Shown one piece after another: positions 31,201 to 58,001 of a stretch of DNA of 64,000 nucleotides (position 1 is its first letter; the number at the start of each line of letters is the position of its first letter). This stretch comes from an uncultured Gammaproteobacteria bacterium (GTDB lineage Bacteria; Pseudomonadota; Gammaproteobacteria; PS1; Pseudothioglobaceae). The DNA lies in assembly GCA_902512485.1 (NCBI GenBank), contig CABXJL010000001.1, positions 5,703-69,702 of the forward strand. Direction: 5' to 3'. Made by a program: the position numbers and the translations under genes. Under the pieces are notes generated by a model. The model ran no database searches. It saw only the letters and a program-made list of their open reading frames with translations, and was not told where the DNA came from.

Positions 31201-31295
31201 GCGCAGCATAAGGAGTGTCTTGATTGCTTCAGCAATGAGAAAATAACCATAAAATCCAAATTACATTTGATGTGTGAGGGAGGGTTTATTAATGT
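31201..31295 (+). repeat. Island-boundary repeat, copy 1 (intact)
   Basis: 31201-31276 aligns with 54206-54281 (GTCTTGATTGCTTCAGCAATRAGAAAATAACCA...TTTGATGTGTG). 31268-31295 aligns with 54634-54660 (TGATGTGTGAGGGAGGG(T)TTATTAATGT). Confidence 0.85.
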
Positions 31296-31471
31296 AGTGG
31301 CAAAACTATCTTTACAATAGTGCCTTTTTTAGAGGATTCAATCAACAAAGACCCATCATGAAGTTCAATAATTTTTTTGGCGATTGCTAGCCCAAGTCCT
31401 GAGCCAATATCTGGGACATCGCTGCCTCGAGTAAACCTGTCGAATAGTTTTGGTATCTTGCAATCATCAAT
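31289..31471 (-). pseudogene. C-terminal remnant of a sensor histidine kinase (HATPase_c)
   Basis: Hand translation: IDDCKIPKLFDRFTRGSDVPDIGSGLGLAIAKKIIELHDGSLLIESSKKGTIVKIVLPLH* (F box and G2 box). In-frame stop just upstream, no start codon or N-terminal domains. Confidence 0.8.
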
Positions 31472-31558
31472 AACACAGGCAGGAGAATTGCCTTAATCAG
31501 TAAAAAAATCACTTTAATTAGAATGACTTATAAAGGAGTCGATTGCAAGATGCCAAAA

Positions 31559-31966
31559 CTATCCATAATGATTCATTAAATCAGCAATTCTCTTTAAAAA
31601 AATTGCGTGTTCACAAGCTTCCTCTGATGAATAAACTTCGTCCAGCATTTCTACCGGCTTTCCACGAATTCCAGATGCAATACCTATCTTGTATTGCTCA
31701 AACATACGGATACAAACACTAACATACTTTCCAGCCATAGGAGCCCTTCTCATCTTGTCTAGTATCGTTCTAAGTTCATGGCTATGCTCAACTGCTGCGC
31801 GTCCATTAGTTGGTGCGTTACCAACTGGACTATTTCTATGTTCAGCAATTAAACGACGACGAGATTCATCGTCGAATAACAGTGGCATCACATACGTTCT
31901 AGTAATATAGTCATCAGTTTCAGTATGTGATACATTCTCTATAACACCTTTAGTTTTATCTAACAT
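31559..31966 (-). CDS. dmfA1: N,N-dimethylformamidase small subunit homologue
   Basis: IAEHRNSPVG...HSHEL...RAPMAGKY...YSSEEACEHAIFLKRIADL parallels the Paracoccus DMFase small subunit as recalled (EEHAANPFG...QPTFGKY...TEEEAMHAVFLRRIED). Adjacent to the large subunit. Confidence 0.8.
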   Translation of the reverse strand: MLDKTKGVIENVSHTETDDYITRTYVMPLLFDDESRRRLIAEHRNSPVGNAPTNGRAAVEHSHELRTILDKMRRAPMAGKYVSVCIRMFEQYKIGIASGIRGKPVEMLDEVYSSEEACEHAIFLKRIADLMNHYG

Positions 31967-31994
31967 TATTTAATCCTCATTATTTCATTTATTA

Positions 31995-32363
31995 TTAGTG
32001 GTTACGACAAGGTACTGATTCTCCACGCTCTTCTTTCAAGCGAACAGCCTCTGCCTGAGCTTCTTCAGTTGTGTTAAAAACTTTATCTTCAAATAATATA
32101 AGTGGCTTAGCTCTATCAGCATTTAACTGTCCAACACACCATTCCTTTCCTTCAACGGTACAAACCACCACATAAGCTCCCGCAATTGGTCCGTAGCGCC
32201 TATTATTTAGCGTAAATAAACACTTCGCCAAATCATTGACTTTATCCTCATCAAGAGTACTAATAACAGATTCCTCTAAATCATTAAAGGGTTTTGTACT
32301 TGTACCAAGAACAGATTTCCCTGTTGGTGGATCCATCATGTCTGTATGTTTATTAATAGTCAT
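31995..32363 (-). CDS. Second, divergent DMFase small-subunit-like protein
   Basis: RRYGPIAGAYVVVCTVEGKEWCVGQLNADRAKPLILFEDKVFNTTEEA aligns with RRAPMAGKYVSVCIRMFEQYKIGIASGIRGKPVEMLDEVYSSEEA of the neighbouring gene. RBS GGAGG. Confidence 0.6.
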   Translation of the reverse strand: MTINKHTDMMDPPTGKSVLGTSTKPFNDLEESVISTLDEDKVNDLAKCLFTLNNRRYGPIAGAYVVVCTVEGKEWCVGQLNADRAKPLILFEDKVFNTTEEAQAEAVRLKEERGESVPCRNH

Positions 32364-32385
32364 TTTAAATTTCCTCCATTTTCTA

Positions 32386-34764
32386 TTATGGCAATGGATC
32401 CTCTTTTAGGAAACCTCTAATTGCATTTTCTGTAATTCGAGAAACATTGTTGTTGTAATTGTTATGAGAAAGACTTCCACACCAAGATAGAGAACCAGGC
32501 GCAAATACTGCGCCACCATTATCTGTCTTGTAATAAATCATATCTGCCCTTACCATAGGGTTTTCTGTACCACCTCCATGGTAACCGCGAACAGAAAAGT
32601 GAATTTCTTCATTAACTTGCAACATTAAATTGGTATGACCTTCTGAGTGAGCTAATAAGTATGCATCGTGAGGGGTGCCAAACTCTATATCATAACGGTC
32701 CAGTTCCAAACCTGCTGCGCCACCACCAACTAGACCAAAGTCACCAATCTTCTCACCATTTCCAACACCTTCCATAATCCAAGCTGTTTCAGGTCTTTCG
32801 CTGTCCTTATCTCGAACATAGTAGGAAGAAACATCAAATCCATACGCAGTAAAAGTTAATCCACATAGTTTGCTTGGTATTCTTCCTCTAGCTCTCCACA
32901 TGCCACCAAATTTACCATCAAAGGCATTGTTATATTCACCAGGGTTTGCTGTCCAAGCTCTTGTTCCAGCTTCACCTTTACGAACCTCTATAATGTTTGA
33001 ATTGTCTGGGTGGTATTCACTACACCAGTAAAAACCGTTAGCACCCAAATAAATCCATCTTCCACCATCTTGTTGATATTTTTCATATGCTGCAAACATT
33101 TTTTCTGAAGTATATTCTGGGTGACTCCCTGTCAATACAGTTTGATATTTATTTAATAAACCTACACCTTCTCTATTTAAATCTTCATCAGTATGAATAT
33201 CAAAATCAAAGTTTTTTTCTTCCAACCAATCTATAAGGTGTAGATCACCGTTAAGCTGCCAAAGTGATGGCGATAACCAGTGACGATATTTTGGTCGCAT
33301 ATTTAATATTGGTCTCAGCCTTGATGAATAACAAACACCACTTCCATCTGAATGTAACGAATAGGTCGACAAACCATACTCTCTATGCTCATTTAAGTAC
33401 AAATCAGCTGCAGTCATAACTGGCACTTTCCCTGCCAATAATTCTGCAACAACACAGTTTGTACATAAATTATCGTTTGAATATGCCATATAGGCATTTG
33501 TTGGAAGAATAAATGCTAGTTTCGAAGTTGTTGTACCTCTTGGAGGACGAACAACGAAAGGTATATAATCTTCAGTTTCAGGAGAATCCTCGCCTCCAAT
33601 TCTTAGACGTGCAGCATAAATACCGCTTTTTAAGTTATCTGGAATTTTTAATTCAAAATCAACTTCCCAACGAGCATCATCAATATCATCATCATGGAAA
33701 TGAATAGCTCCATATTCTTCTGGTTTGTGATGATAGACAATCTCATCCCCCGTCCAGTTAAAACCTGTCATACCGCGAACTGGCATATTAACGATAAAGC
33801 CATCCAATCGAGTTGTCGAGGTATCAACAATAAAAGTTGAAGCTATATTATTTGAAATGTTTGCATGAAAATCCCAAGCACCTACAACATCGTCTCTTAA
33901 TCCTGCTTGACAACTCTTATATCCTCGAGCTAAAGACTCAATCTCAGCCTTACTTAAGGCTCTTCTAGACAATCTTGGTCGATCAATTTTTCCATTATAG
34001 GTATGAACTTGTTCAGGTAATTCGATTGGTTCAGCTGCTTCCTTAAAATGACCACCAAAAATGTGCCTTCCAGATCTTTCATGTTTTGTGCTAGCAGCCA
34101 TCAAAAATGGTGCGTCATTAATACCAGGCTTTAAACTATTGATTGATTCGACTACAGCAGTAGTTTCCTCAGATGGATGCAATATACCCTGACCAAGACC
34201 TCCATTAGTAGAAGTTACAACGGGCTCTTGATATAAGGTTACTTTACCTGTTCTTGAATCGTAACTAACAGCAGCGAGATACCAAACTTTACGTAAAAGT
34301 TTTTTATCGCTTGAAAGCTTCATAACTTGACCACTACCGTCACCTATTTCTACTGTCAAACAGTTATTCTCATCAATAAACAGTCCATATCCACTTTTCG
34401 TTTCTTCAACCCATTTAGTTAGAATTCCTTGACGCCCTTTTTGCGGTGTACCAAGTCCTTCAATCGGAGTTGTAGGAAAGATATAACATTGAAGTGTAAA
34501 ACTCTCTACATTTAGGCGATCATCTTGGGGAACAACGATGTAGGAACCACCGTGTATTCTTTGATTTCTCCCTGGATAATTTTTGTTACATTCAGCTTGA
34601 ACCTCTTCTTCCTTGTAACCAGGCCCTTCAGGGTTTGTATCTCCATGTATTAAACGAACAATTTGAGTTTCATATACTTCGTTTTCTTCAGAGTTAATAT
34701 AAAATTGTATGTTATCCCCAGGACAAACAGAGTATTTGTCGCTATAACCAGTAATTCTTAACAT
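32386..34764 (-). CDS. dmfA2: N,N-dimethylformamidase large (catalytic) subunit homologue
   Basis: VRLIHGDTNPEGPGYKEE, LamG-like region, YMAYSN, YGLSTY, DLHLIDWL, LTGSHPEY, GLVGGGAAGLELDR, VRADM, WCGSL..NNVS. The 2-Tyr/1-Glu iron ligands and the adjacent His appear conserved. Confidence 0.92.
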   Translation of the reverse strand: MLRITGYSDKYSVCPGDNIQFYINSEENEVYETQIVRLIHGDTNPEGPGYKEEEVQAECNKNYPGRNQRIHGGSYIVVPQDDRLNVESFTLQCYIFPTTPIEGLGTPQKGRQGILTKWVEETKSGYGLFIDENNCLTVEIGDGSGQVMKLSSDKKLLRKVWYLAAVSYDSRTGKVTLYQEPVVTSTNGGLGQGILHPSEETTAVVESINSLKPGINDAPFLMAASTKHERSGRHIFGGHFKEAAEPIELPEQVHTYNGKIDRPRLSRRALSKAEIESLARGYKSCQAGLRDDVVGAWDFHANISNNIASTFIVDTSTTRLDGFIVNMPVRGMTGFNWTGDEIVYHHKPEEYGAIHFHDDDIDDARWEVDFELKIPDNLKSGIYAARLRIGGEDSPETEDYIPFVVRPPRGTTTSKLAFILPTNAYMAYSNDNLCTNCVVAELLAGKVPVMTAADLYLNEHREYGLSTYSLHSDGSGVCYSSRLRPILNMRPKYRHWLSPSLWQLNGDLHLIDWLEEKNFDFDIHTDEDLNREGVGLLNKYQTVLTGSHPEYTSEKMFAAYEKYQQDGGRWIYLGANGFYWCSEYHPDNSNIIEVRKGEAGTRAWTANPGEYNNAFDGKFGGMWRARGRIPSKLCGLTFTAYGFDVSSYYVRDKDSERPETAWIMEGVGNGEKIGDFGLVGGGAAGLELDRYDIEFGTPHDAYLLAHSEGHTNLMLQVNEEIHFSVRGYHGGGTENPMVRADMIYYKTDNGGAVFAPGSLSWCGSLSHNNYNNNVSRITENAIRGFLKEDPLP

Positions 34765-34803
34765 AATATTTCCTTAATTTTTATTAATTAAAAGTTAAAT
34801 TGA

Positions 34804-36798
34804 TTAGGACTCTTCGCCCTCGATATCTTCATCCTTTTTTTCGCCTTTTCTATAATCACCAAGTAGGTTTTTAATATTGCCAATCTCATTTGGAGACATA
34901 CCAATTTCGTCAAGAAGATGATCAATAAACGGTACTTGTGCTCTGTAGCGCATAGCTGCATTCACTATATTGTCAGGCAAACCCGCCCCACCATTAGCAG
35001 GCCCTACAAAATCAGGATTAGTACTATTTGAGTTAAATCCTGGCATACCATTTAATTCGTAAATTTTTATATCATCAATATTTTCCATTGGCTTGACTGC
35101 CTCTCGAATAATTGAATCAAGATTTCTCGCTAACTCCATTCTAAGATCACTTTGCCTACTCTCATCACTACGAGCGTTTTCTGCTTCATTAAGCATCAAC
35201 TTACCAGCGGCATCAATCTCATAGCGTAGTTTGCTAGCCAGAGAAGCATGTTTTTCGGCTTGCTCCCTCTCTTGGGCAGCCTCTTTTTCAGCTCTAGCAA
35301 GGGTAGTAATTTGAATTGCCTCACTTTCCCCTTCCATTTCTGCACTTATTAATTGCAACTTCTTGTTACGTTCTGCAATCTCGACTTCTTGTGCTGAAAG
35401 AACTTGTTCTTCTGCAACAACTACTTCGGCTCTAGCTTGTTCTTTACTTTCCACTGCATTTAATACTTCTACAGTTTTAGCTATAACCTCAAGTTCACGA
35501 TTCTTCTCTTCTATTTCAAGATTTTTTCTCTTGTGAATTTCTGAAGCTTGAGCTTGTTGATCGTTTTCTATTCGCGTTATTTCTATGATTCGTTGCTGTT
35601 CTATCTCTAATTTTTTCACCTCTTCTTGGGCCTTTATTTGAGCCTCTTCAGCTTCTACATAACGATCTGACTCTACCTTAAGAACCTCAGCCTTTTGTTT
35701 AGCTCTTTGAGATGATATCTCTTCTTCCTGTTTGAGCCTTGCAAACTCATTTTCCTTTTTAATTTCCAAGGATCTAATTTCAGCCTCAAGATTCTTTTCT
35801 TTAATATCAATCTCTGTTTGCCTCTCAATCTCATTTCGAAGTTTTTTACGCTCCTCAATCTGGAGAGTTAACTCATGTTCACGCAATGAGCGTTCAACTT
35901 CAATAGTATCTTGTTGTTGGATGCGAGCCTTCTCAACATCTTCTGCAGATTGAATTCTTGCTTCTTCAGCTAAACGCTCCTGTCTTGCAGTCTCAACAGC
36001 CATTTCGGTAGTTTCTTTATCTCGCTGCTTAGCAATTTCGCGTTCTTGTAGCAACCTGGAGAATTCCCTCGCCTGATCAATTTCAAGTGCTTTTTGTTCT
36101 GCCTCTAAATTCTTAGTTCTAATCCTTATAGCAGTATCTTGCTCAATATCATTACGTTTTTTCTTTCCAGCCTCAATTTGCTCTGTTAATTGCGTAAGAC
36201 CCTCAGCGTCAAACGCATTAGATGGGTCAAATACCTCTAGGCCGGCTTGATCAACGCTGGTCAATGACACAGCCTCAAGTTCAAGACCTGTTGAACCTAA
36301 AGATTCAGCAACAATTCCCTTAACCGCTTTGATATATTCACCACGTTTTTCTTGAATCTCTTCCATAGACATCTTCGCAGCAACAATACCCAGCGCATCT
36401 ACAAAACGACCTTGCACTAAATCTCTTAAACTTTCAGGCTCCATCGTTCTTTTACCTAGTGTCCCCGCTGCAATTGATACAGCCTCTTTTGATGGTGTAA
36501 CGCGGACATAAAATTCTGCAACTATTTCAACACGCATACGATTTTTTGTAATAAAAGCTTTATCGCCGCCTCGTTTTACCTCTATGCGTAAGGTACGCAT
36601 CCCAACAGCAGTTATATTGTGAATGATTGGCAATACAAAAGCACCGCCACTAATCACAACTTTTTCGCCACGTAGTCCAGTTCTTACAAAAGAAACTTCT
36701 TTAGATGATCTTCGATACAACCAATGCAGCAAATATACAAAAATCGCTATTGCTAATGCTGTCAATATAATAGTTGCAATGATATCTGCGCCAGTCAT
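34804..36798 (-). CDS. Flotillin-family (SPFH/Band 7) protein, YqiK-like
   Basis: N-terminal TM; FVRTGLRGEKVVISGGAFVLPIIH; LELEAVSLT; NAFDAEGL; long E/A/K/Q-rich coiled coil; flotillin C-terminus (IIREAVKPMENIDDIKI). Confidence 0.92.
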   Translation of the reverse strand: MTGADIIATIILTALAIAIFVYLLHWLYRRSSKEVSFVRTGLRGEKVVISGGAFVLPIIHNITAVGMRTLRIEVKRGGDKAFITKNRMRVEIVAEFYVRVTPSKEAVSIAAGTLGKRTMEPESLRDLVQGRFVDALGIVAAKMSMEEIQEKRGEYIKAVKGIVAESLGSTGLELEAVSLTSVDQAGLEVFDPSNAFDAEGLTQLTEQIEAGKKKRNDIEQDTAIRIRTKNLEAEQKALEIDQAREFSRLLQEREIAKQRDKETTEMAVETARQERLAEEARIQSAEDVEKARIQQQDTIEVERSLREHELTLQIEERKKLRNEIERQTEIDIKEKNLEAEIRSLEIKKENEFARLKQEEEISSQRAKQKAEVLKVESDRYVEAEEAQIKAQEEVKKLEIEQQRIIEITRIENDQQAQASEIHKRKNLEIEEKNRELEVIAKTVEVLNAVESKEQARAEVVVAEEQVLSAQEVEIAERNKKLQLISAEMEGESEAIQITTLARAEKEAAQEREQAEKHASLASKLRYEIDAAGKLMLNEAENARSDESRQSDLRMELARNLDSIIREAVKPMENIDDIKIYELNGMPGFNSNSTNPDFVGPANGGAGLPDNIVNAAMRYRAQVPFIDHLLDEIGMSPNEIGNIKNLLGDYRKGEKKDEDIEGEES

Positions 36799-36823
36799 AA
36801 TTCTTTCTCCTTAATTTATATAC

Positions 36824-37537
36824 CTATTTTTTATTGTCTTCTATTCTTGCCTGGGTATCATTCATAGCAGCTCTATATATGACAAACCCAAAAATTATTT
36901 TGTTTAAAAAGTCAGTTAGGTTGTAAATAATATTAAGACTATTTACATCTACTCCACCACCAAGATTATTAATAAAATAGCCAAGTGGGTAAATCGCCCA
37001 ACCAATAGTAAGGATCAATCTCAATCCATTAAATGCTTGATGTGATGCCTCATTGCCACTCTCTATGTTGGAGCGGCTTGCTTCACCCATATAAAGTTCA
37101 CCAAGAATATAAAGCCAACCAACGACACCAATAATAAAACCTAATGTTGCACTCATATAGCCCGCAGCACCTAAAAATTCACCTATCACCATTACCAGAG
37201 TTCCAATTAGTAATCGCCAAAATAGTGCCGATGAGACTTTTGTGACTGCAGTCAAAATTACATAAAACAGTACAACTTGCATAGTATGTGTAAGTATCCA
37301 ATCTAAATATCTAAGGATAATTGGAGCCGTCCCCGTTTCAACCCACATTATTTTGACATAGTGGTAGAAAACAGCTGACACCAACATCGTAACGCCTAAT
37401 AGTGTCATTGTCGTGTGCCATCTATCATGAACCTTGGATCTTTCAAGTAGAAAGAAGATCGTAGCACCTATCATTGCCATGGATAAAAGCCAAAATGTGC
37501 CGCCTACAATGTCAGTTGGTAATAATGTAGTGTTCAT
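36824..37537 (-). CDS. Microbial rhodopsin of the proteorhodopsin clade, DTL motif (flotillin-associated rhodopsin, FArhodopsin)
   Basis: 7 TM helices; helix C RYLDWILTHTMQVVLF (D-T-L at GPR 97/101/108); helix F GWAIYP; helix G DFLNKIIFG with the retinal-binding Lys. Lies 25 bp upstream of flotillin. Confidence 0.92.
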   Translation of the reverse strand: MNTTLLPTDIVGGTFWLLSMAMIGATIFFLLERSKVHDRWHTTMTLLGVTMLVSAVFYHYVKIMWVETGTAPIILRYLDWILTHTMQVVLFYVILTAVTKVSSALFWRLLIGTLVMVIGEFLGAAGYMSATLGFIIGVVGWLYILGELYMGEASRSNIESGNEASHQAFNGLRLILTIGWAIYPLGYFINNLGGGVDVNSLNIIYNLTDFLNKIIFGFVIYRAAMNDTQARIEDNKK

Positions 37538-37653
37538 AGAAATCCCTGGTTATAAATTCTGTATTAATTAATTAATTATTTATTTATTCGTTCATTCAAA
37601 AAACTTTGCCAATATTTAGCTCTATTAAATAGTCTCTATTAAAGGCGTTTATA

Positions 37654-37736
37654 GAGTTTGGACAACCGAAAGAAAGTTTTTTAGTAAATAATTGATCTAA
37701 ATACTAACAATCTTTTAATTTCAGTTATCCAAACTC
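37654..37736 (-). other. Long mRNA stem-loop between the SBP gene and the rhodopsin
   Basis: Minus strand: GAGUUUGGAUAACUGAAA pairs with UUUCGGUUGUCCAAACUC (both DNA mismatches are G-U), plus an inner AAAG/UUAGUA...UACUAA/CUUU stem. Confidence 0.7.
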
Positions 37737-37758
37737 AATTAAAACAACTCTTAATTAA

Positions 37759-38931
37759 TTAAGAGTCTGGATCATATTCCTCTGGATCAGCAGGTCTTAA
37801 GAAGAAGTTGTCAACGTAGTCCTTACCGCCCCAAACTTCAACACCTGGGTTGTACCACAAGGTAGAGTTACGATCACAATCAGTTCCCATCATTGCTTCA
37901 ACATCGTCATATCCAATTGTTAAAGGTGGTACTAAGATTGATTGAATCTTAGGTCCTTGACCCTGTAAAGTACGCATCATGATGTTCCAACCAAGCTCAA
38001 TATCATCACCTGGAGGCCATGTCTGAATAGCACCACTAATATAATCAGGGTTATTACGCCAGTAACATAGAGCACCAATTTCACCACCAATTGACATTGG
38101 AGGAATGTCTCGTCCTGACTGTAATACTGCTGCTAAAACACCAGTTTCACCAGAAGACTGAACTGCAATTCCATCAAGCTGTCCAGGGTGTGTAGCTAAC
38201 CACTTCTGAGTCTCAGCTTGACCAACTTGTGATGTCCACATATGCGCAATCTGACCTGTAACTTTAATATCAGGATATCTAGATAATCCATCTAAAACAC
38301 CAGCATTTTGTGAATCTGATGCTGAAAATCCAGGAATACCTTCAATTACAAGAACATTACCCTTTCCATCAATCTCTTCAGCCATCCATGTTCCAACATC
38401 AAATCCAGCCTGATGGTAGTTCACTGATGAATTTATTGAAAGTGGTGAAGTTGTATATCCAGTAAATGAAAATACTGGAACACCTCTATCAAAGGCATAC
38501 TTAATTGCTTGATTCAATGCAGTCGGGTTGGAGCAACAAATAATTATTGCATCCACACCTTGATCAACGAGTTGTCTGATCTGTTGAATCTGTAATGCAT
38601 CCTTAAGGTTTGACTGTGTAACAATGATGTCATTAAGCAAACCGAGCTCTTGCCATTTTGGTTTTATGACATCCATCAAACGTGCCATTGCACCTTTACG
38701 CCAGGTATTTCCAGCATAAGTACTAGCATAACCTACAGTCCATGGAGGTGAACGTTCACTTTTCCAATCTCTAAACGCACTATCATCAAGTGGCTGAATT
38801 GGATCCATCAAATCCATGTTATAAACCCTATCCCGAATATCCTGTGGGATTTCATCAAGTCCTGCAATGGCCATCGACGTAAATCCGAATGACAACATAC
38901 AAGCCATGACTAGTTTTAATAGTTTTTTCAT
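37759..38931 (-). CDS. Periplasmic binding protein type I (sugar-ABC/RbsB-like fold)
   Basis: Signal peptide; GNTWR, QIQQIRQLVDQGVDAIII, GKGNVLVIEGIPG. RBS AGGAG. Confidence 0.88.
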   Translation of the reverse strand: MKKLLKLVMACMLSFGFTSMAIAGLDEIPQDIRDRVYNMDLMDPIQPLDDSAFRDWKSERSPPWTVGYASTYAGNTWRKGAMARLMDVIKPKWQELGLLNDIIVTQSNLKDALQIQQIRQLVDQGVDAIIICCSNPTALNQAIKYAFDRGVPVFSFTGYTTSPLSINSSVNYHQAGFDVGTWMAEEIDGKGNVLVIEGIPGFSASDSQNAGVLDGLSRYPDIKVTGQIAHMWTSQVGQAETQKWLATHPGQLDGIAVQSSGETGVLAAVLQSGRDIPPMSIGGEIGALCYWRNNPDYISGAIQTWPPGDDIELGWNIMMRTLQGQGPKIQSILVPPLTIGYDDVEAMMGTDCDRNSTLWYNPGVEVWGGKDYVDNFFLRPADPEEYDPDS

Positions 38932-39042: not shown

Positions 39043-39143
39043 CTAAAGTATGTCTAAGTATATCACAATGCATACATTAGTCAACTAAAGTATGTATTTA
39101 TTTTATAATAATATTATAAGTATGTATTTAGTGTAAAGTATGC
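39043..39143. promoter_or_regulatory. Array of AAGTATG boxes in the divergent promoter (candidate response-regulator sites)
   Basis: AAGTATG at 39046, 39088, 39118 and 39136; AAGTATA at 39056; inverted CATAC at 39071. Confidence 0.6.
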
Positions 39144-39217: not shown

Positions 39218-39913
39218 GTGATAAAAGCTATGGAAAACAAAAAGGATAGTAGACCAATAAAATATAAAATTGTTATAGCCGATGACCACGCCCTAGTTAG
39301 AGGTGGTTTAGAATTAGTCGTTAAAATGGCTGTACCCAATGCCGAAATATTTCAAGCAAATAGTTTTGATGAGACAATAAATGTACTTAATTCAAATTTC
39401 TCAATTGATTTAGTTTTACTTGATTTAATGATGCCTGGAATGTGGCATGACAGTATTCAAAGTATTACTTCACAATTTCCTGATGTACCCATAGTAATCG
39501 TTTCTGTAAAAGAGGACTTTGATTCAATTCATAACTCAATTTCTTTAGGGGCTTCTGGATTTATACCTAAAACTTCTGCACCGGAAGTGACTATAAGTGC
39601 TATCCAGCTTGTTCTGGCGGGTGGTGTCTACATACCGCCACATGTTTTGAAACCAAGAGCCGATCCTATTCAACATGATGAAAAATTAGATGATTTGGAT
39701 AGTGTTAAACGCTTGTCTAAAAGGCAAAAAGAAGTTCTTGGTAATATCAGTCTCGGTAGATCGAACCAGGATATTGCTGACGAATTAGGTTTGACTATTC
39801 CAACAATTAAAATGCATGTTTCAGCCATTTTTAAAAAACTAAATGTTAAAAATAGAACTGAAGCTGTATCTATTTATTCTAATTTAGAAAAAGTTTCAGA
39901 TTTACACTCCTAG
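39218..39913 (+). CDS. NarL/FixJ-family response regulator (REC + LuxR HTH)
   Basis: IADDHALVR, LLDLMMP, GASGFIPK, LSKRQKEVL...SNQDIA...TIKMHVSAIFKKL. Confidence 0.93.
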   Translation: MIKAMENKKDSRPIKYKIVIADDHALVRGGLELVVKMAVPNAEIFQANSFDETINVLNSNFSIDLVLLDLMMPGMWHDSIQSITSQFPDVPIVIVSVKEDFDSIHNSISLGASGFIPKTSAPEVTISAIQLVLAGGVYIPPHVLKPRADPIQHDEKLDDLDSVKRLSKRQKEVLGNISLGRSNQDIADELGLTIPTIKMHVSAIFKKLNVKNRTEAVSIYSNLEKVSDLHS

Positions 39914-39925
39914 ATTTATGTAAGT

Positions 39926-41203
39926 TTGCTACTCATTATTATGGCAACTAAACCTTTACAATTACTTTCATACATGTTCAATATTTTTTTTTCTATCAAC
40001 TATAAATTGTGCCATGAATATCTAAAAAAAATACTCATTCCATTTTTTTTAGTCTTACTTCTTAATATTCCTAGCCTTAGCCTGAATATTGCTCATGCAG
40101 ATGAAGAAAACTACTGGAAGCAAAATGTTAACATTTTTAATTTTTCGTGTACGGACGGTGATATAGATTGCTGGATTGATGATAGAAATGCACTAGAAAA
40201 ATTACCGCTAGTAGAATATGCGCCTTTGAAAGCCTCTGAAGTTAATAAAAAACATCATATATGCGTCTCATTTCCACATCTCAAAGACTCTTATTGGGTT
40301 GGAGTGGCTTATGGAATTATTTCTGAAGGAAGACGCCTAGGACAAAAAATAACATTATTCGAAGCTGGAGGATATACAAATCTGGCAACACAATTAAACC
40401 AAGTTGATGACTGTTTGACTAATAATGGTGAAGCTTTAATTATTGGACCAATTTCAAGTAACGGCAACGCAAGACAGATTGACTTGATCAGGGCTAAAGG
40501 AATCCCAGTAGTTGTCCTTGTCACTGGAATTAATACAGAAGTAGATGCAAACTCGCTTCAAAGTTTTGTCAATATGGGTTATACCTCTTGTAAATGGGTT
40601 GCAGACCAAGAAAAACTTAATGATGGAAAGACCAACATTGTATGGTTTCCAGGACCGCCTGGAGCTGGCTGGTCTATAGCCTCTCACCAAGGATGTCTTA
40701 GTGCTCTAGAGAGAACTAATATTAGAATATTAGAAACTAATTGGGGTGATACTGGAAAAGCAATTCAATTACAATTAGTTGAGGAAACACTACTGAATCA
40801 TGCCTCAGGCCCTGAACCCGATTTTAAATACATTGTAGGAACGGGCACCACAATTGAAGCTGCTGTTGGGGCTCTTAGGGCCAGAAAGCTTGGTAATAAA
40901 ATCAAACTGGTATCCACATATTACACACCTGGAATAGATATGTTTATAAAACGCGGTCTAATTTCAATGGCACCTTCGGACCAAATGATTTCACAAGCAA
41001 CAATTGCTGTCGACCAAGCAGTAAGACTTCTTGAAGGAAAAAACATGGCAACCTCAGGAAGACCGGAATTTAATAACACTGGTCGTGTTACAGAACATGT
41101 TCAACAACAAATATTGATTGTAACTCCTGATATATCAGATCAATTCAACTCATCTACAACACTAGCACCAAAAGGCTGGTTTCCAATATTTTCAGTGGAT
41201 TAA
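39926..41203 (+). CDS. torT: TorT-like periplasmic sensor/binding protein
   Basis: ICVSFPHLKDSYW...YG...LFEAGGYTNLATQLNQVDDC, PGPPGAGW, WGDTGK and DQAVRLLEG match TorT-family signatures. True start uncertain (39941 or 39974 possible). Confidence 0.75.
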   Translation: MLLIIMATKPLQLLSYMFNIFFSINYKLCHEYLKKILIPFFLVLLLNIPSLSLNIAHADEENYWKQNVNIFNFSCTDGDIDCWIDDRNALEKLPLVEYAPLKASEVNKKHHICVSFPHLKDSYWVGVAYGIISEGRRLGQKITLFEAGGYTNLATQLNQVDDCLTNNGEALIIGPISSNGNARQIDLIRAKGIPVVVLVTGINTEVDANSLQSFVNMGYTSCKWVADQEKLNDGKTNIVWFPGPPGAGWSIASHQGCLSALERTNIRILETNWGDTGKAIQLQLVEETLLNHASGPEPDFKYIVGTGTTIEAAVGALRARKLGNKIKLVSTYYTPGIDMFIKRGLISMAPSDQMISQATIAVDQAVRLLEGKNMATSGRPEFNNTGRVTEHVQQQILIVTPDISDQFNSSTTLAPKGWFPIFSVD

Positions 41204-44939: not shown

Positions 44940-45956
44940 TTAATTTTTTGCCTGTGAAAGCATCTGTTGACGGAAATATTCAGCGCCAATAGCGACAATT
45001 AACAATACTCCGATGACAACCATTTGTAGATATGAGCCGACCCTCATAAGATTCATGCCGTTTTGTATTAATATAATAAAAAAGGCACCCAATACAACAT
45101 TCTGTACACGCCCAACACCGCCAAGTAAACTAACTCCTCCGATTGCACAAGCCGCTATTGATAGTAAAGGATAATTAGCACCAATATTTGGCTCACCAGT
45201 TTCAAGTCGGGCTGTAATGAGTAATGCCGCAATACTTGTAACTAGTGCAGACAAAACATAAGCACTGACAATATAGACCCTTGTGTTTATACCTGAAAGC
45301 TCAGCCGCTCTTAAATTACCACCTATGGCATAAAAATACCTACCCATCTTGGTCAGGTTGATAAAAATATAAATCAAAAAAATAAAAAATAGAGTTACCC
45401 AAATAGTTATTGATAAACCAAATAATGTTCCATATCCAAAAATATTAGTAAAAGATTCAGGCGCGCCATAAACTGGTATTCCACCAGTAATAGTCAGCGC
45501 TAAACCAAAAATAATTGAAGACATTCCCAGTGTCATTATGAATGGAGGTACACGGAAAAAAGCTACACCTATACCATTCACGAAACCAATAGAAGCACCA
45601 ACAAAAAGACCTGCTAAACACCCTATAGTAATCGCCTCCCAACCAGAGCCATAACCTGACCACAAGGCAACCATTGTCATTGAAGCGACAACAGAAGTCA
45701 TTGCAAGGATCACACCAACAGAAAAGTCCAAGCCAGCGGTTAACATCACAATCATTTGAGCCATAGCAACCAAAATAAGATCAGTTGAATGCCTTGCAAC
45801 ACCCAAAATATTGTTTGGTGTCAAAAAATTATCACTCGCAAATGAGAAAGTTATTAAGGCTATTCCTAGAAACCAGGGAAGCACACCAGCTTTTACAAAT
45901 AAAGCAGAAATGTATTGCTTTAGATCTAAATTAATTCTATCTATTTGATTGTCCAC
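44940..45956 (-). CDS. CUT2 ABC permease (RbsC-like)
   Basis: GLDFSVG, VPPFIMTLG, GRYFYAIGGNLRAAELSGI, IGGVSLLGG. Confidence 0.92.
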   Translation of the reverse strand: MDNQIDRINLDLKQYISALFVKAGVLPWFLGIALITFSFASDNFLTPNNILGVARHSTDLILVAMAQMIVMLTAGLDFSVGVILAMTSVVASMTMVALWSGYGSGWEAITIGCLAGLFVGASIGFVNGIGVAFFRVPPFIMTLGMSSIIFGLALTITGGIPVYGAPESFTNIFGYGTLFGLSITIWVTLFFIFLIYIFINLTKMGRYFYAIGGNLRAAELSGINTRVYIVSAYVLSALVTSIAALLITARLETGEPNIGANYPLLSIAACAIGGVSLLGGVGRVQNVVLGAFFIILIQNGMNLMRVGSYLQMVVIGVLLIVAIGAEYFRQQMLSQAKN

Positions 45957-46094: not shown

Positions 46095-46119
46095 TACATA
46101 CTATTGACTATAGTATGTA
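46095..46119. promoter_or_regulatory. Palindrome in the second divergent promoter sharing the AGTATG core
   Basis: TACATACTAT-tgact-ATAGTATGTA (perfect 10-bp arms). Confidence 0.6.
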
Positions 46120-46242
46120 ATAGTAGTAAACTGTACCTATACTTTTGGATGTTTTTTGCAGAGGATTAATTTATATCGATTACAATCAAAAAAAATTGTA
46201 AATATTATTTATGTTTTTGTACAAACTCAAGGATTTGTTTAG

Positions 46243-54281: not shown

Positions 54282-54342
54282 GGGATAGAGTTTTTTTTGA
54301 GCTATAATTAAATTTCTTTAATAATATTTCTAGGAGTGAAAA

Positions 54343-54636
54343 ATGATTTATGTAATTGTTAAGTGTCCGTGTCATGAAGAAGGAGCATCGAAGCTTATTG
54401 ATTGGGCACACAGTGACGATGGATTGTCATTGACAAGGACACACAAGGGATTTAAGCATATCGAACTTTTGGCTGGTGAAGATAACAAGACAATGTGGTT
54501 ATACGAACAATGGGAGACAAAAGAGGACCATCAAGCATATCTAAATTTTCGAATGGAAAATGGATTTGAAAACTTTATGGGAGAAATATTGGAAGGTGAA
54601 TTGTCAATCAATTATCTTTCCAACTGCGGAGCATGA
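54343..54636 (+). CDS. Antibiotic biosynthesis monooxygenase (ABM) / putative quinol monooxygenase
   Basis: 97 aa, LYEQWETKEDHQAYLNFR. RBS AGGAG. Confidence 0.8.
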   Translation: MIYVIVKCPCHEEGASKLIDWAHSDDGLSLTRTHKGFKHIELLAGEDNKTMWLYEQWETKEDHQAYLNFRMENGFENFMGEILEGELSINYLSNCGA

Positions 54637-54660
54637 TGTGTGAGGGAGGGTTATTAATGT
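54634..54660 (+). repeat. Island-boundary repeat, copy 2 (right part, separated by the ABM gene)
   Basis: TGATGTGTGAGGGAGGGTTATTAATGT matches 31268-31295 with one indel. Confidence 0.8.
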
Positions 54661-54699
54661 TTTCAAGCAATTAAAGCCGATACGTCTTACTAGCAATTG

Positions 54700-55479
54700 T
54701 CAATTAAAAAGCATACTTACTGCCTTTACTTTTGTTTCATTGTTTGGGGAAATTTTTCCATCAGGCATAAAAATTGAGTTTTCAAAGCCCACTCTAATTT
54801 TTCCACCAAGTTTTATAGCGCTCTTAATACAGCTCACTTCTTCTTTACCAAATGCACAAATAGCCCAATCAGCTTTTATATCATTTGCTTTAGCTCTGTC
54901 TAGAAAGGGCTGGATATTACTTGGTGAACTGATTTTACCTGTGTAGTGACCAATTACAAACAAGCACCAAACCCCCTGTTTTGAGAGTCCAGATTTATCA
55001 AGCGCCACAGCAAGCAAGTCAACATCTTCAGGACCATAGAGGATGTGTTGAATCTTTACTCCTTTTTCACTGAGGTATTGATAAATTTTTATGTCCTCTT
55101 GTATTGGTCGAAATGATGGAATCATTTCACGAATGCCAATTGAGATACCAGGAGTGCTAACATCATAGGCAAGTTTTCGCATATCTTCTGGTGTGTATCT
55201 TCCAACAGCCTCTGTTGTAATTTGAAGGTGCATCTCAGGAACAACCCCTTCTAACTCAGCCAATGCCTCTTTATAAAGCCCCGAGTCTAGCACATGAAGG
55301 CCGTTTTTATCCCGCACGTGAAAATGTATCGCATCAGCACCAGCAATGTAGCAATTTTTAGCTGTGTTTACGATCTCAGAAATTGAAAGTGGCACTGCAG
55401 GATGGTCTTTTTTCATTTTTCTTGAGCCGTTCGGCGAGACCATGAGTTTTGGTAATTCTATTGGCTGGTAAAACGACAC
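54700..55479 (-). CDS. Beta-keto acid cleavage enzyme family (BKACE/DUF849, Kce-like)
   Basis: SPNGSR, IHFHVRD (HxH), ITTE, RVGFENS. Confidence 0.87.
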   Translation of the reverse strand: MSFYQPIELPKLMVSPNGSRKMKKDHPAVPLSISEIVNTAKNCYIAGADAIHFHVRDKNGLHVLDSGLYKEALAELEGVVPEMHLQITTEAVGRYTPEDMRKLAYDVSTPGISIGIREMIPSFRPIQEDIKIYQYLSEKGVKIQHILYGPEDVDLLAVALDKSGLSKQGVWCLFVIGHYTGKISSPSNIQPFLDRAKANDIKADWAICAFGKEEVSCIKSAIKLGGKIRVGFENSIFMPDGKISPNNETKVKAVSMLFN

Positions 55480-55528
55480 TTTCCTCTCCTTTATTTACGT
55501 TAAATTATCAATAACATGCACATACAAA

Positions 55529-56998
55529 TTAAACAATGTTTAATTCGTTTAGCTTATTTTTTATAAACTCATTTAAATCAGAGCCTAGTGGACAAGTTTC
55601 AAGAATAAACCTATCAGGCCTTACAATAATTGCCTTGGCATTATAATAATTTAATAGGTCCGCCAAGCCTACAACTTGATGGCCGTAAAAAGATTTAATT
55701 TTACTCTTTAGTTTATTATCTTTTAGCTCTGAATCCAAAAGCAAAACTGGCTGCTTTGCAAACTTCAAGTCTAGTCTTGTGCCATTATTCATTGTTAGTT
55801 GTGGGAAAGGTTTTCCTCTATTCTTATCTGATTTTTTGCCAAGACCAGGGCCAAGTTCTGGCTGAATTGATTTCATACTCATAGTTCCATCAGAATTTTC
55901 GGAAATATTATTTGTAATTTTTGAAGTACTAATATCGTTAATAAACTCACCCATTCTCATTGTTGTTTGAATGTATTCTTTAACATTTGAAAACCTTTCT
56001 GATTGATATGTATCGAGCAGTTTTTCATTATGACCATTTTTTAAACAAAGACTAATCTTCCAAGCTAGATTTGAAGCATCTCTAATTCCAGCACACATAC
56101 CTTGTCCCATAAATGGAGGCATTAAGTGTGCAGCATCACCTACTAAAAAAATACGTCCCGATCTCCATTTCATAGCTATAGCAGATTGAAAAGTGTAAAT
56201 TGTTTTTCTTTCTAACTCTGCCTCGTATGGCTGTAGCCATGGTTTTAAAAAATTCCAAATATATTTGTCAGATAAGATTTCTTTTTCATCCTCATGATCA
56301 TGAATAGCAAACTCCCAGCGCCTTCTTCTTCCAACATTTCGACAGTAGGTTGCTGGTCTTTTTGAATTTGAGTACTGAATAGTTCTATCAGCCAATTTAT
56401 TATTATCATGTTTTAAAATTAAATCAACTACAGACCACTTCTGATTAAACCCAAGGTTTACAAGCTTATTTCCCATTTGCTCCCTAGTCGCTGATCCGGC
56501 ACCATCACAACCTATAACGTAGCTTGATTCTACTGAATGAAGTTTATTAGTCTGTCTGTCTTCAAACACTATTTCTACATGATTATCGATATTTTTTATT
56601 TTTAAAACTATTGCATTCTGTCTTATAGAAACTTTTTTAAAGTCTTTTAATCTTCTACGAAGCTGCCTTTCTAAGTCAGGTTGATGAAATCTATAACTTG
56701 GATACCAACCATTAATCGTTCGAGATCGAGGACGCGGCCAATCCAGCACTACTTCATCGTCTGCATTTACAAACTTAGTTCCTTTGTTAATAATTGTATA
56801 TCTTGCAAGCCTTTCTGAAATTCCAATAGACTGAAAAATACGCATAACTTCATCATCAAAATGAACCGCTCTAGGAAGATTAAAAATACTTTTTTCACGC
56901 TCTAGAATTAATATAGAAAGTCCATTCAGCGCTAATAGATTAGCTATAGTTCCACCTACTGGACCAAGTCCCACTATAACAACATCATATGATTTCAT
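55529..56998 (-). CDS. FAD-dependent aromatic hydroxylase, MhpA-like
   Basis: GLGPVG, PRAVHFDDEVMR, FHQPDLE, GCDGA, GDAAHLMPPFMGQGMCAGIRDASNLAWK. Confidence 0.88.
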   Translation of the reverse strand: MKSYDVVIVGLGPVGGTIANLLALNGLSILILEREKSIFNLPRAVHFDDEVMRIFQSIGISERLARYTIINKGTKFVNADDEVVLDWPRPRSRTINGWYPSYRFHQPDLERQLRRRLKDFKKVSIRQNAIVLKIKNIDNHVEIVFEDRQTNKLHSVESSYVIGCDGAGSATREQMGNKLVNLGFNQKWSVVDLILKHDNNKLADRTIQYSNSKRPATYCRNVGRRRRWEFAIHDHEDEKEILSDKYIWNFLKPWLQPYEAELERKTIYTFQSAIAMKWRSGRIFLVGDAAHLMPPFMGQGMCAGIRDASNLAWKISLCLKNGHNEKLLDTYQSERFSNVKEYIQTTMRMGEFINDISTSKITNNISENSDGTMSMKSIQPELGPGLGKKSDKNRGKPFPQLTMNNGTRLDLKFAKQPVLLLDSELKDNKLKSKIKSFYGHQVVGLADLLNYYNAKAIIVRPDRFILETCPLGSDLNEFIKNKLNELNIV

Positions 56999-57026
56999 GT
57001 ATTTATATTAAACGAGCCTTAGTTTG

Positions 57027-58001
57027 TCATTGTTTTTTAACCACCTGAGAGTATAACCAAGGACAGTCCACCAATAATGGCGCTTGCTTGCCTTCTAGTG
57101 CTGTTTCTAATCTTTTTGAACGAAACATAAGTCTCTCTTCATCGGAAAGATAGAGTCGCTCATGTCCCCAAAAACTAGGACCTTCAAAGGTTTCTATAGG
57201 ATCCCATGATGACGGATCAATGATTCGACCTCCCCATCCATTCTCAACAAAAAAACCAGAAGGTGTGTGTGAATAAAAAGACGTCATATAATCGTTGCTG
57301 TGTCTTCCCAATGTATAAGCAATTGCATTATCTTGATATTGTAATAAATCATATCCTTGGCCAACATCATCAAGACTGTTGTATTCAATCATGAAGTGAT
57401 GAAAGCCTGTCTTCCCTGAGCCAAAAAATGCAAAACTATGGTGACGGCCATTTACATGAAAGAAGCATAATGAAATTGGTGTATTACTGTAATCACTAAT
57501 TTTAAAATCTAAAATATCGCGATAAAAAGGTATCAATAATTCTACATCTTGCACATGAATAACTGCGTGTCCCATGCCAAATGCTCCAGTTTTAAAGCCT
57601 GAAATAGGTCGTCCAGGAACAAATGGGTCAGTATCCTTCATTGGCTTATAAACAAGCTCAATTCGATTTCCTTGGGGGTCTTTAAAATAAATTAAATCTT
57701 CTACAAAGCGCTTGTCAGAAAAATCTGATTTACCGTAGAATACTGGTATATCAATTGCCTCAAGTCTTTCTGCATAGACCTGTAAGTCTTCCTTAAACTC
57801 AACCTCCCAGCCCATAAAAGCCAAACCTTCATCTTCATTTTTTGTGACTGCTAGGCGCTGTTTTTGATCATCCATTCTAAAACTCAGTGCGCCATTTCCT
57901 CTATCTACCAGTTGCATGCCGAGATATTTTTGAGAATATTCAGACCAATCATTGAGTTTGTTTGAGTTAACTCCAATATAACTAAGGGCGTTTATAGTCA
58001 T
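57027..58001 (-). CDS. Type I (VOC) extradiol ring-cleavage dioxygenase, BphC/HsaC-like
   Basis: FRMDD, DPQGNRIE, GMGHAV, RHHS, FHHFMIE, LGRHSND.MTSFY, FFVENGWGG. RBS GGAGG before ATG 58001. Confidence 0.9.
   Translation of the reverse strand: MTINALSYIGVNSNKLNDWSEYSQKYLGMQLVDRGNGALSFRMDDQKQRLAVTKNEDEGLAFMGWEVEFKEDLQVYAERLEAIDIPVFYGKSDFSDKRFVEDLIYFKDPQGNRIELVYKPMKDTDPFVPGRPISGFKTGAFGMGHAVIHVQDVELLIPFYRDILDFKISDYSNTPISLCFFHVNGRHHSFAFFGSGKTGFHHFMIEYNSLDDVGQGYDLLQYQDNAIAYTLGRHSNDYMTSFYSHTPSGFFVENGWGGRIIDPSSWDPIETFEGPSFWGHERLYLSDEERLMFRSKRLETALEGKQAPLLVDCPWLYSQVVKKQ

Follow-up and report, generated by a model that had tools for sequence, protein, structure and literature searches.

The FAR operon and its published counterpart

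The stretch of DNA analysed here (the window) comprises 64,000 nt of contig CABXJL010000001.1 (assembly GCA_902512485.1, positions 5,703 to 69,702), and our subject is a group of six genes at window positions 31559-38931 that brings together a solute-binding protein (SBP), a FArhodopsin (FAR), a flotillin and a predicted amidase of the dimethylformamidase (DMFase) type. The list of open reading frames (ORFs) gives six minus-strand frames in one direction, of 390, 237, 664, 792, 122 and 135 aa, separated from 5' to 3' by 221, 25, 39, 22 and 28 bp. Pfam recognises Peripla_BP_4 in the 390-aa protein (7e-36), Bac_rhodopsin in the 237-aa protein (9e-31), Band_7 and Flot in the 664-aa protein (5e-30) and DMFA2_C (4e-96) plus a Laminin_G_3-like domain in the 792-aa protein, with zero matches for the 122-aa and 135-aa proteins. 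An initial annotation of this DNA had described six co-directional genes with coordinates and gaps that agree with the ORF list, and the Shine-Dalgarno-like motifs that it placed before the last four genes can be read in the sequence (AAGGAG for the flotillin, AAGGA for the large subunit, GGAGGA for the 122-aa gene and GAGGA for the 135-aa gene); the SBP gene is also preceded by one (AGGAG). The genes are the following.

37759..38931, minus strand: SBP, 390 aa, CUT2-type Peripla_BP_4; the published Pseudothioglobus cds10
36824..37537, minus strand: FArhodopsin, 237 aa, seven-transmembrane (7TM) opsin fold, from Pfam and residue reading
34804..36798, minus strand: flotillin, 664 aa, Band_7 and Flot; the published cds12
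32386..34764, minus strand: predicted DMFase-type large (beta) subunit, 792 aa, mononuclear-iron amidase, from the match to 6lvb_A
31995..32363, minus strand: alpha', 122 aa, predicted diverged DMFase small-subunit paralogue, from BLASTP to the 135-aa protein
31559..31966, minus strand: alpha, 135 aa, predicted DMFase small subunit, from the match to 6lvb_B

This stretch is the promoter-proximal operon of the FAR island already published for Pseudothioglobus. Table S2 of Haro-Moreno et al. (2023, mSystems; PMC10308929) gives, as cds10-cds15 of the FAR cluster of the Pseudothioglobus single-amplified genome (SAG) AG-313-D08, an SBP of 390 aa, a rhodopsin of 235 aa, a flotillin of 665 aa, an N,N-dimethylformamidase of 792 aa and hypothetical proteins of 122 and 135 aa, all six marked as common to SAR11, HIMB59 and Pseudothioglobus; the same table also has a LuxR regulator, a TorT-like protein, a hybrid kinase, ABC genes and a symporter. 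The window shares with AG-313-D08 the six genes, their order and their lengths (rhodopsin 235/237 aa, flotillin 665/664 aa), as well as the upstream genes from regulator to symporter, whereas the differences are of strain-level sequence only, related loci being 84-97% identical in protein. The main text of that paper names dimethylformamidase among the cluster genes and describes the flotillin and the last three genes as conserved and potentially co-transcribed; the two small proteins are left hypothetical, and FAR function is tied to neither the amidase nor the transporters (PMC10308929). Among the matches listed in our literature search, dimethylformamidase occurred together with rhodopsin or SAR11 only in this paper. 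That FArhodopsin-flotillin pairs are known had been stated in the initial annotation, and the DMFase linkage, which it had left unverified, proves to be published too, in both the main text and Table S2. The linkage is thus no new system, and the value of what follows lies in comparative results that sharpen the question of FAR function.

A rhodopsin of a predicted retinal-free kind

The rhodopsin has the type-1 microbial rhodopsin fold (PF01036, E-value 9e-31, residues 14-225), begins with MNTTLLPTDIVGGTFWLLS, an N-terminus of the type seen in Pseudothioglobus FArhodopsins, and is about 90% identical to published PsFAR-type sequences. The flotillin gene lies directly downstream on the same strand, after the 25-bp spacer. 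Reading the rhodopsin residues from the sequence gave D79, T83 and L90, a DTL motif and so one of the two (DTT/DTL) that the initial annotation named for FArhodopsins, together with H84, E120 and K213. In the cryo-electron microscopy structure of PsFAR no retinal is bound, the reason being that H84 and E120 fill the pocket, and only the H84/E120 double mutant regains retinal binding (Kovalev et al., 2025; bioRxiv 10.1101/2025.04.29.651185). H84, E120 and K213 stand at identical residue numbers in the two proteins, and by this direct sequence correspondence the window rhodopsin is predicted to be of the same retinal-free kind, although the retinal-free state was demonstrated for PsFAR alone and the window protein is likened to it residue by residue. 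An ordinary light-driven pump, considered as a candidate, was rejected on account of the H84/E120 pair and of the finding that PsFAR binds no retinal.

It is very unlikely that the window rhodopsin is phototrophic, given H84/E120 and the occurrence of FAR as the only rhodopsin elsewhere. The FAR within the cluster is the sole PF01036 match in five genomes of chromosome scale, which come from Arenicellales (three), Rhodobiaceae (one) and Poriferihabitaceae (one); these genomes (G124 and G126-G129, with loci L014, L017, L019, L022 and L032) measure 2.7-5.3 Mb and their FAR is lysine-retaining. Marine FARs had been reported from SAR11, HIMB59 and Pseudothioglobus only, always alongside a proteorhodopsin (PMC10308929). 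The range of FAR therefore extends past streamlined genomes, the cluster being present in large genomes of Njordibacter as well as of these three groups. Its place as sole rhodopsin in five large genomes, together with the PsFAR structure, argues against a role that depends on proteorhodopsin. The genome to which the window belongs is 54% complete and has a single PF01036 match, and four FAR-positive Pseudothioglobus genomes also give a proteorhodopsin-type match. The Pseudothioglobus genome G046 (94% complete) has a FAR match at 84% identity and no proteorhodopsin-type match with the query used.

Transport genes are the constant neighbours of FAR and flotillin

A FAR search of 1.8 billion representative proteins returned relatives without the Schiff-base lysine, here called lysine-less (such as P0154, P0179 and P0207), on whose contigs ABC-importer genes precede FAR and flotillin, these being permeases except in one case, where the gene is cut and unannotated. 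An alignment of lysine-less FARs, used to scan metagenome contigs, yielded 36 loci from seawater, lakes, peat and soil. Their order is SBP, ABC ATPase, permease, permease, FAR, flotillin and Na+/solute symporter, with 10-26 bp from permease to FAR and an SBP 53-63% identical to that of the window; nearby are a 129-aa protein, an alpha/beta-hydrolase and an iron alcohol dehydrogenase. Zero Pfam or NCBIfam matches were obtained for the 129-aa cluster protein and for a 135-aa ORF that follows the flotillin in one locus (L082). The same gene families flank FAR in lysine-retaining Arenicellales, Njordibacter, Rhizobiaceae and others. Across very divergent lineages, the constant neighbours of FAR and flotillin are thus ABC importer genes and the Na+/solute symporter: the order ABC-FAR-flotillin-symporter holds down to about 30% FAR identity, in marine, lake, peat and soil metagenomes and in non-streamlined genomes of 3-5 Mb.

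The amidase behaves differently. Neither the large nor the small DMFase subunit was found in any of the lysine-less FAR-flotillin loci (0/36, with at least 5 kb downstream of FAR in 17/36), which rules out DMFase as a universal FAR partner. In the lysine-retaining clade, most taxa other than Pseudothioglobus have 1-4 genes between flotillin and DMFase, in variable order. Arenicellales have flotillin, 129-aa protein, hydrolase, metallo-beta-lactamase (MBL)-fold hydrolase, symporter, beta, alpha' and alpha, and SAR11 has flotillin, 129-aa protein, hydrolase, alpha, beta, alpha' and symporter. In the window, DMFase abuts the flotillin because four members of the cluster are missing there: the 129-aa protein, the hydrolase, the protein with the MBL fold and the dehydrogenase.

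Five rhodopsin representatives (P0178, P0157, P0167, P0184 and P0218) were left out of these comparisons, having no flotillin link or contigs that were too short. Two of them, P0178 (L085, L086) and P0157 (L087), are without the Schiff-base lysine and have XRN exonuclease, protein kinase and RNase H genes as neighbours and no flotillin; their contexts look viral or eukaryotic.

FAR and DMFase are gained and lost together in the lysine-retaining clade

Scanning one genome per prokaryotic species for the large subunit gave 315 relatives, and the best 80 of these 315 were kept and searched by tblastn with the six window proteins. Among these 80, FAR and flotillin lie upstream, on the DMFase strand, at every DMFase locus of at least 75% identity whose upstream flank is long enough. 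The loci belong to Pseudothioglobus, SAR11, Njordibacter, Chromatiales, Arenicellales, Poriferihabitaceae, Rhodobiaceae, Rhizobiaceae, Hyphomicrobiales, Aestuariivirga and Acetobacteraceae; they span at least 10 families, and several lie on chromosome-scale assemblies of 2.7-5.3 Mb. Searches within families gave the same association. FAR is present in 9 and DMFase in 11 of 122 Thioglobaceae species genomes, DMFase being on the FAR contig in 9/9 and the two surplus DMFase genes being truncated by contig ends. The 251 sampled Pelagibacteraceae genomes contain six with FAR and six with DMFase, five of them shared, the two genes lying on one contig about 4.4 kb apart. This overlap in both families means that, in the lysine-retaining clade, FAR and DMFase have been gained and lost together. 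Only about one Pseudothioglobus species in four carries the island, as do a few percent of the Pelagibacteraceae that were sampled. In three Pseudothioglobus genomes that are 99% complete, its left flank is present and both FAR and DMFase are missing, and a variant in which the whole cluster is deleted has been published.

At one locus (L080), genes for alpha, beta and alpha' with 74% identity stand beside a TorT-like SBP and ABC genes, and neither FAR nor flotillin was found within 10 kb on either side of it. Three short contigs binned as Dehalococcoidia, Flavobacteriales and Methanobacteriota (L010, L011 and L044) carry DMFase at 78-88% identity with island neighbours of the Pseudothioglobus or SAR11 type, and are probably binning contamination. 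Complete RefSeq genomes with the FAR island are those of Ca. Pseudothioglobus Uisw_041 (L005), Ca. Njordibacter Uisw_039 (L012) and Ca. Pelagibacter Uisw_094 (L026).

A predicted amidase with an intact active site and two small-subunit paralogues

The 792-aa protein matches the large subunit of the Paracoccus DMFase over its full length (6lvb_A, E-value 9.7e-191, residues 3-792 against 5-760), and it also matches the N-acetyl-(R)-beta-phenylalanine acylase 8HUY (E-value 5e-124). Residue roles are those determined for the enzyme of Paracoccus sp. DMF (6LVB; Arya et al., 2020, PMC7686228). In our alignments, whose numbering was checked with the Y440A and E521A mutant chains, the window protein keeps the iron ligands Y399, Y440 and E521 of the 2-Tyr-1-carboxylate site, the catalytic residues H519, N547 and E657, and the gating residue F693. 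The last of these is replaced in the acylase 8HUY, and its retention weakly hints at a small, formamide-type substrate. The 135-aa protein corresponds to the DMFase small subunit (6lvb_B, E-value 5.8e-5, residues 40-130), without which the Paracoccus large subunit is inactive (PMC7686228). The 122-aa protein is a paralogue of the 135-aa protein (BLASTP 9e-9, 36% over 59 aa), and in nearly all related loci this alpha' gene adjoins that of the large subunit. Judged from these alignments, the 792-, 135- and 122-aa proteins form a DMFase-type iron amidase with intact catalytic residues and two small-subunit paralogues, and the enzyme is probably alpha/beta/alpha', an arrangement not described for the characterised DMFase.

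The likeness to the Paracoccus enzyme thus covers the large subunit from end to end, its iron, catalytic and gating residues, and the presence of a small subunit. The window enzyme differs in its additional paralogue alpha', in large-subunit insertions near 100-106 and 225-245 and in the replacement of Y656 by L, and it comes from a marine oligotroph, not from a bacterium that degrades solvents. A second DMFase-type large subunit, 40% identical, occurs in two Pseudothioglobus genomes (G024:C10:10801-13065 and G055:C93:153-2417).

A flotillin with a proposed opsin-fold partner

The flotillin consists of an N-terminal hydrophobic anchor (hydrophobic residues 5-27, then RRSSK), an SPFH/Band_7 domain, a long middle region and a C-terminal Flot domain. 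Against the NCBIfam FloT equivalog it scores 29.7, where the cut-off is 700, so that the window flotillin is no FloT orthologue. Our homology search with this protein was saturated with sequences at least 97% identical, and no diversity was gained from it. SPFH and flotillin operons with an integral-membrane partner are known, as in NfeD-FloT/YqiK and HflK/C-FtsH. The window resembles them in having a membrane-protein gene right upstream of the flotillin gene, with a very short spacer, and in the Band_7 domain, Flot domain and anchor. It differs in that the partner would be a 7TM opsin-fold pentamer, neither NfeD nor a protease.

The rest of the island and its regulation

Upstream of the SBP gene the island continues with transport and sensing genes, and candidate regulatory features lie at both ends of the operon and within it.

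39218..39913, plus strand: LuxR/NarL-type response regulator (Response_reg and GerE)
39926..41203, plus strand: TorT-family periplasmic sensor-binding protein, 425 aa
41234..42787, plus strand: ABC ATPase of the small ABC set, 517 aa
42769..44838, minus strand: hybrid kinase; nearest families NahK/ErcS and TorS, all under cut-offs
44940..45956, minus strand: RbsC-like ABC permease, 338 aa
46243..52139, plus strand: large ABC set, with an ATPase of 733 aa and two oversized permeases of 731 and 472 aa
52209..54140, plus strand: Na+/solute symporter, 643 aa
38932..39217, minus strand: divergent regulatory region upstream of the SBP gene, with promoter-like site and boxes
37654..37736, minus strand: long stem-loop just past the SBP stop codon, without a T-tract
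31477..31493, minus strand: terminator-like hairpin after the last gene, a pattern match only

The large ABC set is orthologous to the genes found immediately ahead of FAR in other lineages, and the 643-aa symporter is orthologous, at 61% identity, to their post-flotillin symporter. The SBP has a signal-peptide-like N-terminus. The TorT-family protein scores 283.8 bits against NF008185 (cut-off 200) and 217.6 against TIGR02955 (cut-off 310). Having a TorT-family protein above the NF008185 cut-off, with a hybrid kinase and a response regulator adjoining, the island resembles TorT/TorS/TorR; its regulator, however, is of the LuxR/NarL type and not the OmpR type, and its kinase lies far under the TorS cut-offs. 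The part of the island that was annotated showed no genes for trimethylamine N-oxide (TMAO) reductase.

The divergent region upstream of the SBP gene contains a promoter-like site, TTGACT-N16/17-TATACT at 39084-39057, flanked by five AAGTATG/CATACTT boxes. Five AAGTATR boxes fall within the 97 bp of 39046-39142, compared with 25 in the whole window, and in six related loci the boxes and the promoter hold their place within otherwise diverged sequence. A related palindrome lies upstream of the ABC operon (46097-46119), where the boxes cluster as well (46097-46144). The boxes of both divergent promoter regions may be binding sites of the LuxR-type regulator. The spacer between the SBP and rhodopsin genes has a folding energy of -44.3 kcal/mol (z = -3.4). 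Seven loci retain a hairpin past the SBP stop codon, by its structure and not its sequence, with changes on both sides in 5/7 pairs; it is possibly an intercistronic stabiliser or attenuator; depth in contigs of RNA libraries, far higher over the SBP gene than downstream (runs X9 and X10), gives a hint only. Contigs of four RNA libraries from four studies cover the six genes and bridge the SBP-FAR, FAR-flotillin, beta-alpha' and alpha'-alpha junctions, but such assemblies reveal neither transcript ends nor strand nor whether there is a single transcript, and DNA contamination is possible.

At the borders of the island, the region to the right of the symporter (window 54300-58000) has zero DNA match in four complete congeners, including one that carries the FAR island (G041), so the variable region runs on past the island. 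On the other side, the spacer between the last island gene and a MogA-like flank gene contains an element of about 40 bp (window 31251-31296) that is present in about 12 copies in G034 and recurs often in complete Pseudothioglobus genomes; it looks like a repetitive extragenic palindromic (REP) element and sits at the island border.

Discussion

Our results describe a dispensable island for uptake and catabolism, apparently regulated by its substrate, in which FAR and flotillin would act independently of light and be tied to the transporters, with DMFase as a downstream hydrolase. As a whole, we give this explanation roughly even chances of being right. It agrees with the initial annotation in placing the rhodopsin in solute catabolism and not in phototrophy, a view now backed by H84/E120, by the genomes in which FAR is the sole rhodopsin, by the transport and catabolism genes of the cluster and by the co-occurrence of FAR and DMFase.

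In the mechanism that we propose, the TorT-like protein, the hybrid kinase and the LuxR-type regulator would sense a small periplasmic solute and activate the promoter that lies among the boxes ahead of the SBP gene, as well as the divergent ABC operon. The solute would then be imported by the SBP-dependent ABC importer and the symporter. Flotillin would form an SPFH-type assembly on the membrane's cytoplasmic side, with the retinal-free FAR pentamer as its integral-membrane partner, in the way that NfeD or FtsH partner other SPFH proteins; together, and irrespective of light, they might organise the transporters, or stabilise them, within a microdomain. This physical role is inferred from other SPFH systems and from synteny. 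A cytoplasmic amidase would cleave the imported small N-substituted formamide into amine and formate. It may have joined the module in the lysine-retaining, mainly marine clade, the other cluster enzymes being lost in Pseudothioglobus, which would have left the amidase right behind the flotillin. The full conjunction, in which FAR-flotillin is a light-independent accessory of ABC importer and symporter, with the opsin fold serving as membrane client or nucleator of an SPFH scaffold that organises or regulates uptake, and in which this module, among the lysine-retaining marine bacteria, feeds an iron amidase of the formamide type, is tentative, and we would rather doubt that it holds in every part.

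Several observations weigh against this explanation. The structural study of PsFAR saw no obvious adaptation for flotillin binding (bioRxiv 10.1101/2025.04.29.651185). The SAR11 FAR does not have permeases directly before it. The SBP belongs to a sugar-type family and lies far under every NCBIfam cut-off. The lysine-retaining loci were picked via their DMFase, and unbiased co-occurrence comes from the within-family genome searches only. Regional counts of promoter and terminator patterns are no higher than expected from shuffling, and from the promoter scan only the site conserved in relatives was used. Finally, none of the RNA contigs listed bridges the flotillin-DMFase junction, which is in itself no evidence that the genes are transcribed separately.

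The initial annotation went further than we do, and suggested that FAR and flotillin may be a device dedicated to the amidase, which would sense, channel or export its substrate or its products (amine, formate, H+). The upstream FAR and flotillin of every sufficiently flanked DMFase locus of at least 75% identity in at least 10 families, the joint presence and absence in Thioglobaceae (9/9) and Pelagibacteraceae (5 of 6), the mere 39 bp from flotillin to large subunit in Pseudothioglobus and the fact that DMFase is the sole enzyme left in the window's island are what such a device would predict. Yet DMFase is missing from all 36 lysine-less FAR-flotillin loci, L080 has the three amidase genes and an ABC set with neither FAR nor flotillin close by, the genes that intervene between flotillin and DMFase vary in number and order, and the PsFAR structure has no reported channel or sensor feature (bioRxiv 10.1101/2025.04.29.651185). 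The synteny check suggested with the initial annotation therefore came out in two ways: the association stands in the lysine-retaining clade, but in divergent lineages the FAR-flotillin pair goes without DMFase, and service to the amidase specifically is not borne out. We regard it as distinctly improbable.

At the opposite extreme, FAR-flotillin, transport and amidase genes could be unrelated cargo of a mobile island, their tight spacing reflecting streamlining. An island that is patchy among Pseudothioglobus and Pelagibacteraceae, that has clearly moved between Alpha- and Gammaproteobacteria and whose enzyme content varies by lineage would fit such hitch-hiking. What would not be expected of a neutral assembly is a gene order from ABC importer to symporter that is kept down to about 30% FAR identity, in varied habitats and in genomes of 3-5 Mb, and we consider unrelated cargo unlikely. 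According to the hypothesis published with the cluster, FAR acts as a complement to proteorhodopsin, for instance within a hetero-oligomer, and improves light harvest in the dim lower photic zone; proteorhodopsin was also present in the marine SAGs with FAR, and read recruitment to the clusters is highest in the lower photic zone (PMC10308929). The proteorhodopsin-type matches in four FAR-positive Pseudothioglobus genomes agree with it. However, PsFAR binds no retinal, FAR is the only rhodopsin-family gene in the five chromosome-scale Arenicellales, Rhodobiaceae and Poriferihabitaceae genomes, and lysine-less FARs occur in peat and soil metagenomes, all of which makes a light-harvesting complement very hard to sustain.

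FArhodopsins abound in several of the ocean's most numerous bacteria, and our results redirect the question of their function: FAR stands as the only rhodopsin in large, probably sponge-associated genomes, its transporter neighbours are invariant, and an intact predicted DMFase-type amidase is co-inherited with it across the lysine-retaining clade. FAR function thereby becomes testable by ordinary biochemistry and, if Uisw_041, Uisw_039 and Uisw_094 are cultures, they would be experimental systems for a family described as uncultivated. Should the proposed uptake and catabolism of formamides be true, it would mean that the sea has a natural pool of small N-alkylformamides, which serves as a source of nitrogen and one-carbon units for SAR11, Pseudothioglobus and sponge-associated bacteria.

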